Shown: positions 9,944 to 47,123 of the stretch, one piece after another
Numbering within the stretch: the stretch's first letter is position 1
Layout of the letters: each line of letters opens with the position of its first letter
Source of the DNA: Escherichia coli
GTDB lineage: Bacteria > Pseudomonadota > Gammaproteobacteria > Enterobacterales > Enterobacteriaceae
Assembly (NCBI RefSeq): GCF_022846255.1
Contig: NZ_AP025682.1
Direction: 5' to 3' (one strand)
Length of the DNA: 64,000 nt
Made by a program: the position numbers and the translations under genes
Notes under the pieces: model-generated
What the model was told of the DNA's origin: nothing
The model's database searches: none
What the model saw: only the letters and a program-made list of their open reading frames with translations

Positions 9944-10594
9944 ATGAATACACAACTGATGGGTGAGCGTATTCGCGCTCGCAGAAAAGAACTTAAGATT
10001 AGGCAGGCTGCCCTTGGCAAGATGGTTGGCGTGTCTAATGTTGCTATTTCCCAATGGGAGCGTTCTGAAACTGAGCCCAATGGCGAAAACCTATTGGCTT
10101 TAGCCAAGGCTTTACAGTGCTCCCCTGATTACTTGTTGAAAGGAGAAGATAGTCTTTCAAACATTGCCTATCACAGCAGGCATGATCCAAGAGGTTCGTA
10201 TCCTCTAATTAGTTGGGTAAGCGCAGGATGTTGGATGGAAGCTGTAGAGCCATATCATAAGCGTGCAATAGATAACTGGTACGATACAACCGTAGATTGT
10301 TCAGAAGATTCGTTTTGGCTGGACGTAAAGGGTGATTCGATGACGGCTCCAGCCGGTCTTAGCATCCCGGAAGGGATGATAATACTAGTCGATCCTGAAG
10401 TAGAACCTCGTAATGGGAAGCTGGTAGTGGCAAAGCTCGAAGGAGAAAACGAGGCAACTTTCAAGAAGTTAGTTATTGATGCTGGCAGAAGGTTTCTAAA
10501 ACCACTTAACCCACAATATCCGATGATTGAGATCAACGGGAACTGCAAAATCATCGGTGTAGTTGTCGATGCAAAAATAGCAAACCTTCCATAA
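9944..10594 (+). CDS. c2: Prophage repressor, P22 C2 type
   Basis: 216 aa, MNTQLMGERIRARRKELKIRQAALGKMVGVSNVAISQWERSE...; N-terminal HTH and C-terminal LexA/S24-like domain. Confidence 0.95.
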   Translation: MNTQLMGERIRARRKELKIRQAALGKMVGVSNVAISQWERSETEPNGENLLALAKALQCSPDYLLKGEDSLSNIAYHSRHDPRGSYPLISWVSAGCWMEAVEPYHKRAIDNWYDTTVDCSEDSFWLDVKGDSMTAPAGLSIPEGMIILVDPEVEPRNGKLVVAKLEGENEATFKKLVIDAGRRFLKPLNPQYPMIEINGNCKIIGVVVDAKIANLP

Positions 10595-13467: not shown

Positions 13468-14253
13468 ATGAGTACAGCACTCGCAACGCTGGCAGGGAAG
13501 CTGGCTGAACGTGTCGGCATGGATTCTGTCGACCCACAGGAACTGATCACCACTCTTCGCCAGACAGCATTTAAAGGCGATGCCAGCGATGCGCAGTTCA
13601 TCGCATTGCTGATCGTCGCCAACCAGTACGGCCTTAATCCGTGGACGAAAGAAATTTACGCCTTCCCTGATAAGCAGAACGGCATCGTTCCGGTGGTGGG
13701 CGTTGATGGCTGGTCCCGTATCATCAATGAAAACCAGCAGTTTGATGGCATGGACTTTGAGCAGGACAATGAATCCTGCACATGCCGGATTTACCGCAAG
13801 GACCGTAATCATCCGATCTGCGTTACCGAGTGGATGGATGAATGCCGCCGCGAACCATTCAAAACCCGCGAAGGCAGAGAAATCACGGGGCCGTGGCAGT
13901 CGCATCCCAAACGGATGTTACGTCATAAAGCCATGATTCAGTGTGCCCGTCTGGCCTTCGGATTTGCTGGTATCTATGACAAGGATGAAGCCGAGCGCAT
14001 TGTCGAAAATACCGCATACACTGTAGAACGTCAGCCGGAACGCGACATCACTCCGGTTAACGATGAAACCATGCAGGAGATTAACACTCTGCTGATCGCC
14101 CTGGATAAAACATGGGATGACGACTTATTGCCGCTCTGTTCCCAGATATTTCGCCGCGACATTCGCGCATCGTCAGAACTGACACAGGCCGAAGCAGTGA
14201 AAGCTCTTGGATTCCTGAAACAGAAAGCCACTGAGCAGAAGGTGGCAGCATGA
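13468..14253 (+). CDS. bet: Bet (Red-beta recombinase)
   Basis: 261 aa, [32 protein letters not shown]... Confidence 0.95.
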
Positions 14254-14930
14254 CACCGGACATTATCCTGCAGCGTACCGGGATCGACGTGAGAGCTGTC
14301 GAACAGGGGGATGATGCGTGGCACAAATTACGGCTCGGCGTCATCACCGCTTCAGAAGTTCACAATGTGATAGCAAAACCCCGCACCGGAAAAAAGTGGC
14401 CTGACATGAAAATGTCCTACTTTCACACCCTGCTGGCTGAGATTTGCACCGGTGTGGCTCCGGAAGTTAACGCTAAGGCGCTGGCCTGGGGAAAACAGTA
14501 CGAGAACGACGCCAGAGCCCTGTTTGAGTTTACTTCCGGCGTGAATGTTACTGAATCCCCGATCATCTATCGCGACGAAAGTATGCGCACCGCCTGCTCT
14601 CCCGATGGTTTATGCAGTGACGGCAATGGCCTTGAGCTGAAATGCCCGTTTACCTCCCGGGATTTCATGAAGTTCCGGCTCGGTGGTTTCGAGGCCATAA
14701 AATCGGCTTACATGGCCCAGGTGCAGTACAGCATGTGGGTGACGCGAAAAGATGCCTGGTACTTTGCCAACTATGACCCGCGTATGAAGCGTGAAGGCCT
14801 GCATTATGTCGTGATTGAGCAGAATGAAAAGTACATGGCGAATTTTGACGAGATGGTGCCGGAGTTCATCGAAAAAATGGACGTGGCACTGGCTGAAATT
14901 GGTTTTGTATTTGGGGAGCAATGGCGATGA
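14250..14930 (+). CDS. exo: Exo (Red-alpha exonuclease)
   Basis: 226 aa, [43 protein letters not shown]... Confidence 0.95.
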
Positions 14931-15109
14931 AGCATCCTCACGATAATATCCGGGTAGGCGCGATCACTTTCGTCTACTCCGTTACAAAGCGAGGCTGGGT
15001 ATTTCCCGGCCTTTCTGTTATCCGAAATCCCCTGAAAGCACAGCGGCTGGCTGAGGAGATAAATAATAAACGGGGAGCTGTATGCACAAAGCATCTCCCG
15101 TTGAGTTAA
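14921..15109 (+). CDS. Lambda orf60a-like small protein
   Basis: [37 protein letters not shown]... Confidence 0.6.
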
Positions 15110-15273
15110 GAACGAGTATCGAGATGGCACATAGCCTCGCTCAAATTGGAGTCAGGTTTGTGCCAATACCAGTAGAAACAGACGAAGAATTTCATACGTT
15201 AGCCGCATCCCTTTCACAAAAGCTGGAAATGATGGTGGCGAAAGCAGAAGCAGATGAGAGAGACCAGGTATGA
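15082..15273 (+). CDS. Lambda orf63-like small protein
   Basis: [38 protein letters not shown]... Confidence 0.6.
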   Translation: MHKASPVELRTSIEMAHSLAQIGVRFVPIPVETDEEFHTLAASLSQKLEMMVAKAEADERDQV

Positions 15274-15349
15274 CAACCACTGAATGCATTTTTCTGGCAG
15301 CGGGCTTCATATTCTGTGTGCTTATGCTTGCCGACATGGGGCTTGTTCA

Positions 15350-15565
15350 GTGACACCTCAGCAAGAAAACGCCCTTCGCAGCATTGCCCGTCAGGCTAAT
15401 TCTGAAATCAAAAAAGCCAGACAGCAGTTTCCGGATAAAAACGTCGATGACATTTGCCGTAGCGTACTGAAGAAGCACCGCGAAACGGTAACGCTGATGG
15501 GATTCACACCGACTCATTTAAGCCTTGCGATCGGCATGTTGAACGGCGTCTTTAAGGAACGGTGA
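15350..15565 (+). CDS. Lambda orf61-like small protein
   Basis: GTG start inside ORF 15284..15565: VTPQQENALRSIARQANSEIKKARQQFPDKNVDDICRSVLKKH... Confidence 0.5.
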   Translation: MTPQQENALRSIARQANSEIKKARQQFPDKNVDDICRSVLKKHRETVTLMGFTPTHLSLAIGMLNGVFKER

Positions 15566-15663
15566 ACATGAAAAGCAAAATCATCAGGGAGCTACAGGCT
15601 CCTTTTTTATTATTCGCATTTACCCTCAAGCGTATTAACCAACAATTCAGGGATTAATGAAAG

Positions 15664-15885
15664 ATGGCGGACATCATTGATTCAGTATCAGAAATTGAAG
15701 AATTACAGCGCAATACAGCAATAAAAATGCGTCGTCTGAACCACCAGACTATATCTGCCACTCATTGTTGTGAGTGTGGCGATCCGATAGATGAACTAAG
15801 ACGTCTGGCCGTTCAGGGTTGTCGGACTTGTGCAAGTTGCCAGGAAGATCTGGAGCTTATCAGTAAACAGAGAGGTTCGAAGTGA
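15664..15885 (+). CDS. TraR/DksA-family C4 zinc-finger protein
   Basis: 73 aa with CCECGDPIDELRR...CRTCASC four-Cys motif. Confidence 0.6.
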   Translation: MADIIDSVSEIEELQRNTAIKMRRLNHQTISATHCCECGDPIDELRRLAVQGCRTCASCQEDLELISKQRGSK

Positions 15886-16091
15886 GCGAAATTAACTCTC
15901 AGGCACTGCGTGAAGCGGCGGAACGTGCAATTCCAGCAATGGAACGCCTGTTAATGTTGCCAGCTGATGATGATTTGTTAAGTGAACAGGAACTTAAAGA
16001 TTACGGTGTGGATATTGATGCGCTCAACGCCTTCAAATTTCTGGCCGGACCAGAAACCGTGCTGGCACTGCGCCGTCAGGAAGTTTTTTAG
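15882..16091 (+). CDS. Hypothetical acidic protein, last gene of the pL operon
   Basis: 69 aa, GTG start overlapping the TraR-like stop, so likely translationally coupled. Confidence 0.5.
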   Translation: MSEINSQALREAAERAIPAMERLLMLPADDDLLSEQELKDYGVDIDALNAFKFLAGPETVLALRRQEVF

Positions 16092-16120
16092 TACGATCAA
16101 TGGTTAACTCAACTCTCATG
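16034..16120 (-). CDS. Candidate 28-aa ORF downstream of the LexA-box promoter
   Basis: Strong SD GAGGAGGG 5 nt before ATG; MRVELTIDRTKKLPDGAVPARFLVRPEI; antisense to the 3' end of gene 15882..16091. Confidence 0.25.
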
Positions 16121-16138
16121 ATTCCCTCCTCATTGATT

Positions 16139-16189
16139 TACTGTGTGAATATACAGTTACTTTATAAACCTCTCATTTGGATTTTGCAA
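16139..16189 (-). promoter_or_regulatory. Putative LexA-repressed promoter
   Basis: Minus strand TTGCAA, 17-bp spacer, TATAAA, then TACTGTGTGAATATACAGTT on + (CTGT-N8-ACAG) covering the predicted start site. Confidence 0.5.
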
Positions 16190-16223
16190 TGTTTTAAGGG
16201 CACGAATTGCGAATAACCCTATA

Positions 16224-16256
16224 CAAAAAAACCCGCCGAAGCGGGTCTTATCTTTC
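16224..16256. terminator. Bidirectional intrinsic terminator
   Basis: AAAAAAA-CCCGC-CGAA-GCGGG-TCTTATCTTTC; strong U-tract for minus-strand transcripts, weaker for the plus-strand pL operon. Confidence 0.6.
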
Positions 16257-16257
16257 A

Positions 16258-16431
16258 TTAATGCTTAGTCCTTACAGGAAAAGACCAGCATTTATATCCG
16301 TATGCGTGTGCATCCAAAACTCGGCGCTCTGAGTCAGGCGTCCCAGCTTTAGCTCGCGCCCTGCGATAACGACATTTTACCCAGCGGAAACCATCCGGAA
16401 GTTTTTTGGTAGGAATTTCTTTCAAAGCCAT
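16258..16431 (-). CDS. Candidate 58-aa basic ORF
   Basis: ATG with GAGG 7 nt upstream; MALKEIPTKKLPDGFRWVKCRYRRARAKAG...; below the ORF-track size cutoff. Confidence 0.2.
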   Translation of the reverse strand: MALKEIPTKKLPDGFRWVKCRYRRARAKAGTPDSERRVLDAHAYGYKCWSFPVRTKH

Positions 16432-16580
16432 AAATAAACCTCGTTCCAGGCGAGCACTTCCCTGAAACTTGATAAAAATATGGGGATCCGCTAATGTACT
16501 GTTGTTGACGCAGTACTGATTGCGGGTGCTCTAACATCCCCAATCCGAGCCCTTCCCCGGCAAAGGAAGGGCTCAAATTC

Positions 16581-17111
16581 TTATGAAGGCTTCACATACG
16601 CCTTCAAAATCGACATAATACGCTCAGCTTCTTCCATCGTGATGTTGGTAGGCAACCCCTGAACTGTAATCATTGCCCCTGTTTCAGGTCGAACAACGAT
16701 CGGTAAATTGAAAGTCTGCACTTTCTCATGTCTTGCAGCTTTAGCTTTCTCCATCTTCTGCTCCACCGCATCAAACCCATCTAAATTTCCTTCGGTGTCT
16801 GCCAAGTTGACTAAAGTCCCCACTCGCGTGTACTCCTCAAACTTATTGACAGCACTTTTAAACCGGCTTCGATAATTATGAATGGTGGATTCACTGGGCT
16901 TGTTTGCCTGAGTTTCAGCATAACGAGTAATGAGGTCTTCAACGTTCAGGTCGCGCACATCATCGTTGTCACTCGTGTCGACCACAGATAACAGCAGCAA
17001 CGCAGAATTTTTTAAGTTGCGAGCTGTTGCTTCGTTGATCAGCCCCAAGTTAGGCAACTTCATAAGAAAATCGAAGAATGCTTGCGTTGAGTAATTATCG
17101 TTCATAAGCAT
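16581..17111 (-). CDS. Hypothetical protein, 176 aa, no recognisable family
   Basis: ORF track; ATG start; hairpin GAGCCCTTCC...GGAAGGGCTC just after the stop. Confidence 0.6.
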   Translation of the reverse strand: MLMNDNYSTQAFFDFLMKLPNLGLINEATARNLKNSALLLLSVVDTSDNDDVRDLNVEDLITRYAETQANKPSESTIHNYRSRFKSAVNKFEEYTRVGTLVNLADTEGNLDGFDAVEQKMEKAKAARHEKVQTFNLPIVVRPETGAMITVQGLPTNITMEEAERIMSILKAYVKPS

Positions 17112-17156
17112 CTCTCATTGTTATCCATAGGTGTAGTGTAGATTCAGAGGTTTTAC

Positions 17157-17196
17157 CGATCAATGTTTTTTTTATCGATCGATCAATCTTTTTTTA
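17157..17196 (-). promoter_or_regulatory. GATC-clustered direct repeats in the leader of the 176-aa gene
   Basis: Three GATC within 27 bp; two copies of CGATCAAT each followed by a T-run, 45-85 bp upstream of the start codon. Confidence 0.35.
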
Positions 17197-17337
17197 AATC
17201 TAACCAATCCCACCCACTTAAAAACACTCAACAACATTTCACCCCCTCAGAAACAAAATAAAATAAACTATATAAAACAACAAAATACACAGATCTATAA
17301 AACAGACAACCGCCCCCGCCTCCCCCACCCCATACTG
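17186..17337 (-). repeat. Strand-asymmetric tract: G-depleted on +, G-rich on -
   Basis: About 6 G in ~150 nt on +; minus strand has GGGGTGGGGGAGGCGGGGGCGG (17310-17331) and further G-runs. Confidence 0.45.
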
Positions 17338-17407
17338 AATTTAGATACAGCCTTAGTTAATCAACCTTCGTTCACCAGAGCAGCACATATGCCTTCGGAC
17401 TTTTTAG

Positions 17408-17995
17408 TTAAGCCACAAATGGCAGTTTGCACAGTTCTGGTAGATTTGCCCTTACCAGAGCCTCCGCGAATTGTGGAGGTACGGCATTTCCGCATCTGGC
17501 GACCTGTTTATCCTTCGCATACTTCACGCCACGATAATCTTGGTCGATGATGTACCAGTCCGGGAAGCCCTGCGCCCGGTACAGTTCACGCGGCTGTAAC
17601 ATGCGCATACCAATATCAACAATGCGATACGTCACGCCATCGATCACCACCAGCCCGGTACAATCCTCGCCACAGTATTTACGCAGGAACGACAGCGTTT
17701 GTTGCGCGCGTTCTTCGTCGTACTCATCTACGGCAAGATGGGTTTCAACGTTCCCTACATGCAGGCCACCAGCCGTGACAGTCGGCATTGGCGCGTCGGT
17801 GCGTTGTCCATCCCGGCAGGTTCCGCGCAATTTAACCAGGTGAGAAGCAACCACAGCATGGTGATCGACGGTGGTCACAGAATGCATCGGCTCATCCATC
17901 CCCACTTCGGCAATAAACCGGTAAAGGTGTTCGCGATAAAGGTGAATATCAATGACTAAATCAGCAGCAGAAAGCAAAAGAATTTTTAGGTACAA
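17408..17995 (-). pseudogene. Remnant of a DNA cytosine-C5 methyltransferase (C-terminal part only)
   Basis: Motif IX-like RMLQPRELYRAQGFPDWY and motif X-like ARCGNAVPP present; no FxGxGG or PCQ motifs; ORF opens only with TTG. Confidence 0.6.
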
Positions 17996-18989: not shown

Positions 18990-19012
18990 GCCGCATCAAT
19001 GCGGCTTTTCTT
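18990..19012 (+). terminator. Putative terminator before xis
   Basis: GCCGCA-TCAA-TGCGGC followed by TTTTCTT. Confidence 0.45.
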
Positions 19013-19036
19013 GCGTGTAATTGCGGAGACTTTGCG

Positions 19037-19255
19037 ATGTACTTGACACTTCAGGAGTGGAACGCACGCCAGCGACGCCCAAGAAGCCTTGAAACAGTTC
19101 GTCGATGGGTGCGCGAATGCAGGATATTCCCTCCTCCGGTTAAGGATGGAAGAGAGTATCTGTTCCACGAATCAGCGGTAAAGGTTGACTTAAATCGACC
19201 AGTAACAGGTAGCCTTTTGAAGAGGATCAGAAATGGGAAGAAGGCGAAGTCATGA
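19037..19255 (+). CDS. xis: Excisionase Xis
   Basis: 72 aa, MYLTLQEWNARQRRPRSLETVRRWVRECRIFPPPVKDGREYLFHESAVKVDL... near-identical to lambda Xis as recalled. Confidence 0.9.
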   Translation: MYLTLQEWNARQRRPRSLETVRRWVRECRIFPPPVKDGREYLFHESAVKVDLNRPVTGSLLKRIRNGKKAKS

Positions 19256-20306
19256 GCGCCGGGATTTACCCCCTAACCTTTATATAAGAAACAATGGATA
19301 TTACTGCTACAGGGACCCAAGGACGGGTAAAGAGTTCGGATTAGGCAGAGACAGGAGGATAGCAATTACTGAAGCAATACAGGCCAATATTGAGTTACTC
19401 TCAGACAGCGGACGCAAATCACTAATAGACAGAATTAAAGGCGGTGACGCAATCACTCTTCATGTGTGGCTTGACCGATATGAAACAATCCTCACCGAAA
19501 GGGGGATCAGGCCGAAAACTCTACTCGACTACGCCAGCAAAATCAGGGCAATCCGAAGAAAATTGCCGGACAAACCGCTCACTGACATATCAACGAAAGA
19601 AGTGGCAGCAATGCTAAACACCTACGTAGCAGAAGGTAAAGCAGCTTCCGCAAAATTAATCAGGTCAACCCTTGTTGACGTTTTTCGTGAAGCAATAGCC
19701 GAGGGGCATGTGGCAACGAATCCGGTAACAGCAACCCGTACAGCAAAGTCAGAAGTAAGGCGCTCAAGGCTGACAGCTAATGAGTATGTCGAGATTTACC
19801 ATGCAGCCGAACCTCTCCCTATCTGGCTAAGGCTGGCGATGGATTTGGCCGTCGTTACAGGGCAGAGAGTCGGCGATTTGTGCAGAATGAAATGGTCAGA
19901 CATAAACGACAACCATCTTCACATTGAACAGAGTAAAACAGGGGCTAAACTCGCCATTCCGCTAACGCTAACGATTGACGCGCTCAATATCTCATTGGCT
20001 GATACACTACAGAAATGCAGGGAGGCCAGCAGCAGTGAAACTATAATCGCATCAAAGCATCACGATCCGCTTTCCCCGAAAACAGTATCAAAGTATTTTA
20101 CAAAGGCGAGAAATGCATCTGGACTCTCATTTGATGGAAACCCGCCAACATTCCATGAACTGCGTAGCCTGTCAGCGAGGCTATACCGGAACCAGATTGG
20201 CGATAAGTTTGCTCAACGTCTTCTCGGGCATAAATCAGACTCAATGGCGGCGCGGTATAGGGACAGCCGTGGACGGGAATGGGACAAAATTGAAATCGAC
20301 AAATGA
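19233..20306 (+). CDS. int: Tyrosine integrase, lambda family, HK022-like
   Basis: 357 aa; N-terminal arm-binding domain identical to lambda Int, central and catalytic domains diverged; RSLSARLY and HKSD motifs. Confidence 0.95.
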   Translation: MGRRRSHERRDLPPNLYIRNNGYYCYRDPRTGKEFGLGRDRRIAITEAIQANIELLSDSGRKSLIDRIKGGDAITLHVWLDRYETILTERGIRPKTLLDYASKIRAIRRKLPDKPLTDISTKEVAAMLNTYVAEGKAASAKLIRSTLVDVFREAIAEGHVATNPVTATRTAKSEVRRSRLTANEYVEIYHAAEPLPIWLRLAMDLAVVTGQRVGDLCRMKWSDINDNHLHIEQSKTGAKLAIPLTLTIDALNISLADTLQKCREASSSETIIASKHHDPLSPKTVSKYFTKARNASGLSFDGNPPTFHELRSLSARLYRNQIGDKFAQRLLGHKSDSMAARYRDSRGREWDKIEIDK

Positions 20307-46571: not shown

Positions 46572-46591
46572 TACTGTACATCCATACAGTA
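46572..46591 (+). promoter_or_regulatory. LexA box of sulA
   Basis: TACTGTACATCCATACAGTA just upstream of sulA. Confidence 0.85.
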
Positions 46592-46613
46592 ACTCACAGG
46601 GGCTGGATTGATT

Positions 46614-47123
46614 ATGTACACTTCAGGCTATGCACATCGTTCTTCGTCGTTCTCATCCACAGCAAGTAAAATTGCGCGTGTCTCTACGGAAAACACTACA
46701 GCCGGGCTTATCAGTGAAGTTGTCTATCGCGAAGATCAGCCCATGATGACGCAACTTCTACTGTTGCCATTGTTACAGCAACTCGGTCAGCAATCGCGCT
46801 GGCAACTCTGGTTAACACCGCAACAAAAACTGAGTCGCGAATGGGTTCAGGCATCTGGGCTACCCTTAACGAAAGTAATGCAGATTAGCCAGCTCTCCCC
46901 TTGCCACACCGTGGAGTCAATGGTTCGCGCTTTACGCACGGGCAATTACAGTGTGGTGATCGGTTGGTTGGCAGATGATTTGACTGAAGAAGAGCATGCT
47001 GAACTTGTTGATGCGGCAAATGAAGGTAACGCTATGGGGTTTATTATGCGTCCGGTAAGCGCTTCCTCTCACGCAACGAGACAACTTTCCGGGCTAAAAA
47101 TTCACTCTAATTTGTATCATTAA
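46614..47123 (+). CDS. sulA: SOS cell-division inhibitor SulA
   Basis: Internal Met [31 protein letters not shown]... Confidence 0.95.

Follow-up and report, generated by a model that had tools for sequence, protein, structure and literature searches.

A LexA-box promoter in a lambda-like Escherichia coli prophage as the probable front end of a severed dinI-family gene

The 64,000-nucleotide stretch of Escherichia coli DNA analysed here (the window) is E. coli-type chromosome, with sulA, ompA and appA and a torS-yccM segment that is 98.8% identical to that of strain E2348/69, and a lambda-like prophage adjoins torS. On the plus strand the prophage is ordered CI-type repressor, N, sieB, gam/bet/exo, a TraR-like gene and a truncated, 69-codon ea22-like gene (ea22', 15882-16091), then an inverted cassette, two small genes, xis, int (19233-20306) and torS. 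Read on its own (minus) strand, the cassette begins with the C-terminal fragment of a C5 DNA methylase gene (17408-17995, N-terminal part lost) and continues with a 176-aa gene (16581-17111, phrog_2602), a 57-aa gene (16258-16431, phrog_33859), an intrinsic terminator and finally a promoter followed by an open reading frame (ORF) of 28 codons. Transcripts from pL must traverse all of this before they reach xis-int (~19000-20306). Lambda-type phage records match the window only to ~15931 (the lambda orf61/TraR region and the start of ea22), and canonical lambda has no equivalent of the promoter at this place, in line with the preliminary description of this DNA, which had stated that canonical lambda has no LexA-controlled promoter.

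The promoter is of sigma-70 type and lies on the minus strand at 16161-16189, with TTGCAA as the -35 element (16189-16184), a 17-nt spacer and TATAAA as the -10 element (16166-16161). Two nucleotides separate the -10 hexamer from the LexA operator AACTGTATATTCACACAGTA (16139-16158, minus strand), the CTGT-N8-ACAG core of which occupies 16141-16156 on the plus strand and which, by its position, covers the predicted transcription start, where bound LexA would block RNA polymerase. A Shine-Dalgarno sequence, GAGGAGGG (16124-16131), begins 7 nt past the operator and stands 4 nt 5' of the ATG at 16119, from which the 28-codon ORF runs to a TGA at 16035-16033 and encodes MRVELTIDRTKKLPDGAVPARFLVRPEI. 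Each of these motifs is where the preliminary description had placed it, as is the overlap of the ORF, in antisense, with the 3' end of the gene at 15882-16091, and the promoter does point antisense into the distal part of the pL operon. Two of its details needed adjustment. The promoter had been called near-consensus, and both elements are present, but they agree with consensus at 10 of 12 positions and the usual conserved T at the last -10 position is lacking, so that the wording was slightly generous; a stricter promoter scan omits the pair from its output because it demands that T. The Shine-Dalgarno sequence and the ATG, said to follow 18 bp after the box, do follow it, but at 7 nt for the former and with a gap of 19 nt for the latter.

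The preliminary description had proposed scoring the LexA box with a position weight matrix. The matrix used here was trained on 20 known E. coli operators, and its absolute scores are approximate. At about 24.6 bits the 20-mer at 16139-16158 is the top LexA site of the 64-kb window and ranks third-highest when set against the 20 training operators, so the claim of a LexA box over the start site holds with an operator of high quality. It is a 20-bp palindromic site resembling the consensus TACTGT(AT)4ACAGTA, from which it departs at four positions, none of them within CTGT or ACAG. The runner-up, at 22.9 bits, is the operator of chromosomal sulA at 46572, and the third-best LexA-like site of the window reaches only 14.4 bits. 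The bare CTGT-N8-ACAG pattern has no statistical weight by itself in 64 kb: it occurs twice against 0.7 sites expected, and at least two occurrences were found in 20 of 100 shuffles. The only other occurrence is TACTGTACATCCATACAGTA at 46572-46591, just 5' of sulA (46608-47123, plus strand), a gene confirmed by NF007892 with 275 bits and adjoined by ompA, and this site served as an internal positive control for operator scoring.

The first 20 codons of the ORF (MRVELTIDRTKKLPDGAVPA, 16060-16119, minus strand) are derived from dinI. The NCBIfam DinI model NF007893 aligns residues 1-20 with profile positions 1-20 of 81 (E = 7e-4); the score of 19.9 bits is far under the curated cutoff of 111, in keeping with a fragment in which profile positions 21-81 are missing. 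The DinI N-terminal strand-turn motif is thus present in residues 1-20, while the remainder of the ~77-81-aa domain is absent, and with it the acidic helix at the C-terminus (..WESADDWF) through which DinI contacts RecA; the binding of RecA by this helix is cited in PMC3121763 (its ref. 28). A DinI family search with an artificial composite query, used only to gather members, returned 937 DinI proteins. Many intact 77-aa DinI proteins of Citrobacter, Enterobacter, Klebsiella and Salmonella start MKVELTIDRTKKLPDGAVPA-LEKELLKRL, and the stub shares 19 of its 20 residues with them, diverging at residue 21. Twenty of ~77 residues are therefore kept and the last ~57 codons lost. Judged from its sequence, such a stub can neither adopt the DinI fold nor bind RecA. 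The 28-aa ORF itself has never been predicted as a protein among ~15 billion predicted proteins and matches no PHROG, and exact-pattern scans for the operator/Shine-Dalgarno region gave no match in viral contigs or species-representative genomes.

The likeness to dinI extends into the regulatory region. The only distant phage match over 16059-16246 is to an annotated gene for DNA-damage-inducible protein I in Citrobacter phage Chris1, with which the terminator, operator, Shine-Dalgarno sequence, ATG and first 20 codons are collinear before the similarity stops. The same elements, together with the promoter, align with five intact dinI loci, and in this comparison the alignment ends abruptly at 16059. 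The operators of the intact relatives score 23.0-27.6 bits, as against about 24.6 for that of the stub, and their operator-to-start gaps are 18-20 nt, counted to the annotated M(K/R)VE start. The closest intact relative (L011) has TTGCAA-17-AATAAT at the aligned position, followed by the operator CTGTATATTCATACAG, a Shine-Dalgarno sequence and an ATG, all likewise at aligned positions. The terminator in the window is a hairpin, AAGACCCGCTTCGGCGGGTTTT, with a T-run (16228-16249, minus strand; 9-bp stem with 5 GC pairs) and is kept at the aligned position 5' of intact dinI genes; it closes the upstream 176-aa and 57-aa genes and insulates the dinI promoter.

The point at which dinI was cut can be placed within a few nucleotides. 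Intact ea22 from an E. coli relative (L002) is identical to the window up to 16066 and again at 16068-16071, and intact dinI (L012 and L013) is identical, from the other side, down to 16059, so that the crossover must lie inside the 8-bp microhomology GCCAGCAC (minus strand, 16059-16066), which extends to 12 of 13 bases across 16059-16071. Where the dinI genes of C. koseri continue from GCAGTGCCAGCAC into TGGAAAAAG, the window continues from GCAGTGCCAGCAC into GGTTTCTGG; the reverse complement of intact ea22 runs from CAGCGCCAGCAC into GGTTTC. The tail of the 28-codon ORF, RFLVRPEI and its TGA (16033-16059, minus strand), is accordingly ea22 read in antisense, by accident of the fusion.

On the plus strand the mirror image of this is seen. 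Up to 16071, but not beyond it, the ea22 stub has 97-99% identity with the 5' portion of intact ea22 genes of E. coli, and PHROG Ea22-type families match its residues 1-63. Residues 1 to ~62 are the Ea22 N-terminus, the final 6-7 residues and the stop being antisense dinI, and the product (WP_249941950.1) has 69 residues in place of the 128 of the intact relative. On this sequence evidence the fusion is what shortened both genes, each reading frame entering the antisense strand of the other for a few codons. At the end of the ea22 stub the fusion has also made a terminator-like hairpin with a T-run (CTGGCACTGCGCCGTCAG GAAGTTTTTT, 16062-16079, plus strand), which is weak (5-bp stem) and probably fortuitous. 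A further observation concerns position 16047, which is G in the window and T in two other copies (L005 and L020), where codon 56 of the ea22 stub becomes TGA. This gives the 55-aa form of Ea22 annotated in E. albertii, whereas the 28-codon frame undergoes only a silent change (CGG to AGG); as a single change it permits no conclusion on selection, and a nonsense mutation in some lineages would fit decaying DNA, as expected.

Exact-protein look-ups found the same block, with an identical junction, in the torS context (L005, L016 and L020) and also in a second, different phage context, where it lies between a small terminase gene and replication genes (L003, L004, L006-L010 and L017-L019). E. 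coli TRECRb50 (proteins BDH33978-80) is one of the carriers. The shared mobile block corresponds to 15881-17978 of the window and its copies are 99.4-99.7% identical; the 10 other copies examined all have the same promoter sequence (16161-16189) as the window, and the operator does not vary among the copies either. Because the junction is the same in both contexts, the truncation must predate the spread of the block. The stub and its intact promoter are found unchanged in the two phage backgrounds and in a few hundred assemblies (drafts of E. coli and E. albertii). This retention could be a hint of selection, but recent spread would explain it equally well, and with identity above 99% across the entire block the retention is uninformative.

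The cassette to the right of 16072 (16072-17978) was not found in any of 5,426 complete E. coli genomes, in 72,556 plasmids or, even at low stringency, in 50,697 phage records. DNA searching did not find a direct parent sequence, the closest intact dinI regulatory region being only ~79% identical, and the parent layout was reached only via look-ups of neighbouring proteins, in particular slightly diverged homologues of the 176-aa protein, and the DinI protein search with the composite query. In an Atlantibacter subterranea prophage (L021) the nin region encodes, on one strand, a full-length 658-aa methylase and a 175-aa protein, after which come a terminator, a LexA box (TACTGTTTGTTTATACAGTA) and an intact 74-aa dinI, with a 96-aa gene, DUF1367, NinG, YlcG and Q downstream; it is 79.8% identical to 17899-16226 of the window. 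Prophages of Citrobacter sedlakii (L022 and L023) are 84% identical and have in the same slot a LexA box before a 63-aa gene. The remainder of the inverted fragment (16258-17995, minus strand) is syntenic with prophage nin regions of these two species at 80-84% identity, and in the nin regions of other prophages an intact dinI or another small gene with a LexA box is present. From these comparisons the Atlantibacter arrangement is evidently the ancestral layout.

LexA-controlled dinI genes in prophages have already been described. The Gifsy-1, -2 and -3 prophages of Salmonella have dinI-antirepressor-irsA operons, LexA-regulated and with dinI as the first gene (Lemire et al. 2011, PMC3121763), in which a Rho-independent terminator is followed by a promoter with a LexA box and then by the dinI start (PMC3121763). 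The distance from box to ATG is 19 bp for the chromosomal dinI and all three Gifsy dinI genes of Salmonella, and these genes are induced 4.6- to 23-fold by nalidixic acid (PMC8072944, on the Salmonella SOS regulon). The unit in the window has the same succession of terminator, LexA box and dinI start, with ~19 bp from box to ATG, and its ancestral place is likewise the nin region 3' of the replication genes. It differs from the Gifsy operons in that only the first 20 dinI codons remain, no antirepressor or irsA-like gene follows them, and the unit now sits, relocated and in inverted orientation, between ea22 and xis; moreover, the repressor here is of the cleavable CI type, whereas that of Gifsy is non-cleavable and depends on an antirepressor. 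With the chromosomal dinI of E. coli and Salmonella (NF007893 / PF06183) the stub shares the N-terminal pattern MR[IV]E[VL]TI...LP.GA, a LexA operator 19 bp 5' of the ATG and, by that operator, membership of the SOS regulon, but as a fragment it scores 19.9 bits against the family cutoff of 111. The regulatory unit is that of a typical prophage dinI promoter. What remains here is part of an SOS-regulated prophage moron of a familiar type, and so has little novelty.

These comparisons establish the homology to dinI, the site of the junction, the ancestral arrangement and the high quality of the operator, and they lead to one reading, to which we give a probability of about 0.88: promoter, operator and 20 codons are the orphaned front end of a prophage dinI-family gene cut by recombination. 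In the nin region of related lambdoid prophages, between the replication genes and Q, genes for a DNA methylase, a 175-aa and a 57-aa protein are followed on one strand by a terminator, then by dinI behind its LexA-repressed promoter, and by further nin genes. A piece of ~1.9 kb of such a region now lies, inverted, in the distal pL operon of the torS-adjacent prophage, between ea22 and xis-int. Its ends cut the methylase gene, with loss of the N-terminal part, and dinI, with loss of the last ~57 codons and hence the RecA-contacting helix, and the dinI end was joined to ea22 by recombination over the 8-bp microhomology. Since the 28-codon ORF is the front end of a severed prophage dinI gene, it is best regarded as a gene stub and not as a new SOS peptide or RNA. 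The suggestion in the preliminary description of a dedicated SOS-controlled small peptide or antisense-RNA gene is therefore not supported, what is found being a dinI 5' end fused to antisense ea22.

Promoter and operator are intact and LexA should therefore still bind the site and repress it in the lysogen. DNA damage would relieve the repression, and the SOS response probably still activates the orphan promoter. Transcription would start near 16153-16155, the 28-codon hybrid ORF would be translated from its strong Shine-Dalgarno sequence into a non-functional peptide, and the RNA would run on antisense to ea22' and the TraR-like gene. Rho terminates untranslated RNA, and since a search 3' of the ORF on the minus strand gave no convincing intrinsic terminator, the candidates all being weak (for instance, a stem of 5 bp at 15434-15417), Rho-dependent termination is the probable end of the transcript. 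The idea that the promoter drives a downstream gene was rejected: the minus-strand ORFs of 14000-16033 are all short overlaps of plus-strand phage genes. The prophage repressor (9944-10594) is of CI type with a UmuD/S24-like C-terminal domain and, by analogy with lambda CI, should answer RecA directly, which makes a separate LexA-controlled induction switch unneeded.

A different view would be that the promoter was co-opted as a cis-antisense regulator which fires convergently against pL on DNA damage, the RNA or transcriptional collision dampening ea22' and the TraR-like gene or delaying read-through into xis-int. An intact promoter and operator aimed against the pL operon, the need for pL transcripts to cross the inverted cassette on the way to xis-int, and the keeping of the stub in two phage backgrounds speak for such a view. 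Yet the copies are near-identical and so provide no signal of selection, the supposed target ea22' is itself a decaying fragment, and the arrangement is fully accounted for as a by-product of rearrangement. Nor does the predicted RNA look like a regulator: its 5' 194 nt have ordinary folding (z = +0.73) and it matches no Rfam family, giving sub-threshold matches only. We therefore regard co-option as unlikely. In its more specific form, that the stranded dinI promoter has been exapted so that SOS-driven convergent transcription opposes N-antiterminated transcription from pL, tuning excision or silencing the TraR-like gene, it is quite unlikely. Were it true, the timing or level of excision would be set independently of repressor cleavage and the retention of the stub would reflect selection. 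We judge the orphan promoter and stub instead to be evolutionary debris that serves no selected function.

E. coli does have small toxins that are induced by the SOS response, and another reading would be that the 28-codon ORF encodes a functional small protein, such as a regulator or a toxin of the TisB or DinQ kind. With tisB/istR and dinQ/agrB it has in common a short ORF behind a LexA-controlled promoter, and the strong Shine-Dalgarno sequence 4 nt before the ATG would favour translation; tisB is among the LexA-regulated genes in PMC8072944. The peptide, however, is 20 DinI N-terminal residues with eight residues of antisense ea22 attached; DinI breaks off after its first strand and turn, so that the C-terminal helix that binds RecA is missing with all the rest. 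Ten of the 28 residues of MRVELTIDRTKKLPDGAVPARFLVRPEI are charged and a hydrophobic stretch is absent; the peptide is hydrophilic and thus not toxin-like. The SOS-controlled type I toxins are hydrophobic membrane peptides paired with an antisense sRNA antitoxin, whereas here there is neither a partner sRNA nor conservation as a family (no entry in the 15-billion-protein collection, no PHROG match), and the origin as a gene stub has been demonstrated. A functional small protein is thus very unlikely. That the motifs co-occur by chance, with no promoter or operator at all, is extremely improbable: the bare operator pattern is not statistically rare in 64 kb and the TTGCAA/TATAAA pair goes unlisted in the strict promoter scan, but the operator scores above that of sulA, and the whole unit, from terminator to codon 20, is collinear with intact LexA-regulated dinI genes.

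With an orphaned dinI front end as the preferred reading, the finding serves mostly as a correction. Lambdoid prophages commonly carry dinI morons under LexA control, and the 5' stubs of these can be mistaken for new SOS peptides or antisense RNAs; for this reason a striking combination of LexA box, Shine-Dalgarno sequence and short ORF in a prophage should be compared with dinI first. The junction is a clean example of mosaicism mediated by microhomology (8 bp), by which a nin fragment was relocated to the accessory region distal to pL. Orphan operators of this type may bring lysogens SOS-responsive antisense transcription and additional LexA-binding sites, with no evident benefit.

Several minor observations were made in the rest of the cassette. 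The 57-aa ORF (16258-16431, minus strand) and the dinI stub (16060-16119, minus strand) have 'TKKLPDG' in common (20 of 24 nt), with an alignment score reached by none of 500 shuffles; the 57-aa ORF could be an older dinI-derived fragment, or the likeness a coincidence. Two Rfam matches below threshold lie on the minus strand at 16226-16375, across the terminator and the 3' portion of the 57-aa ORF. RsmY reaches 22.1 bits against a gathering score of 57, and isrK, an sRNA family of Gifsy-1, reaches 20.7 bits against one of 50; the terminator hairpin is the most likely cause of both.

A weaker LexA-like site, GGCTGTATCTAAATTCAGTA (17333-17352, minus strand, 14.4 bits), lies ~220 nt 5' of the 176-aa gene. 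At the matching position one of the C. sedlakii prophages (L022) has AACTGTATCTAAAATCAGTA (16.8 bits), and the Atlantibacter prophage (L021) has no such site. Going by this site, the 176-aa and 57-aa genes might also be SOS-responsive. The 63-aa gene behind the LexA box in the C. sedlakii prophages (L022 and L023, 4442-4672) has a faint match to Pfam 'Rem', and in L011 a 109-aa gene (2487-2855) follows a LexA box of 25.1 bits. This pattern suggests that the slot after the conserved nin terminator is a place for interchangeable LexA-controlled cargo.
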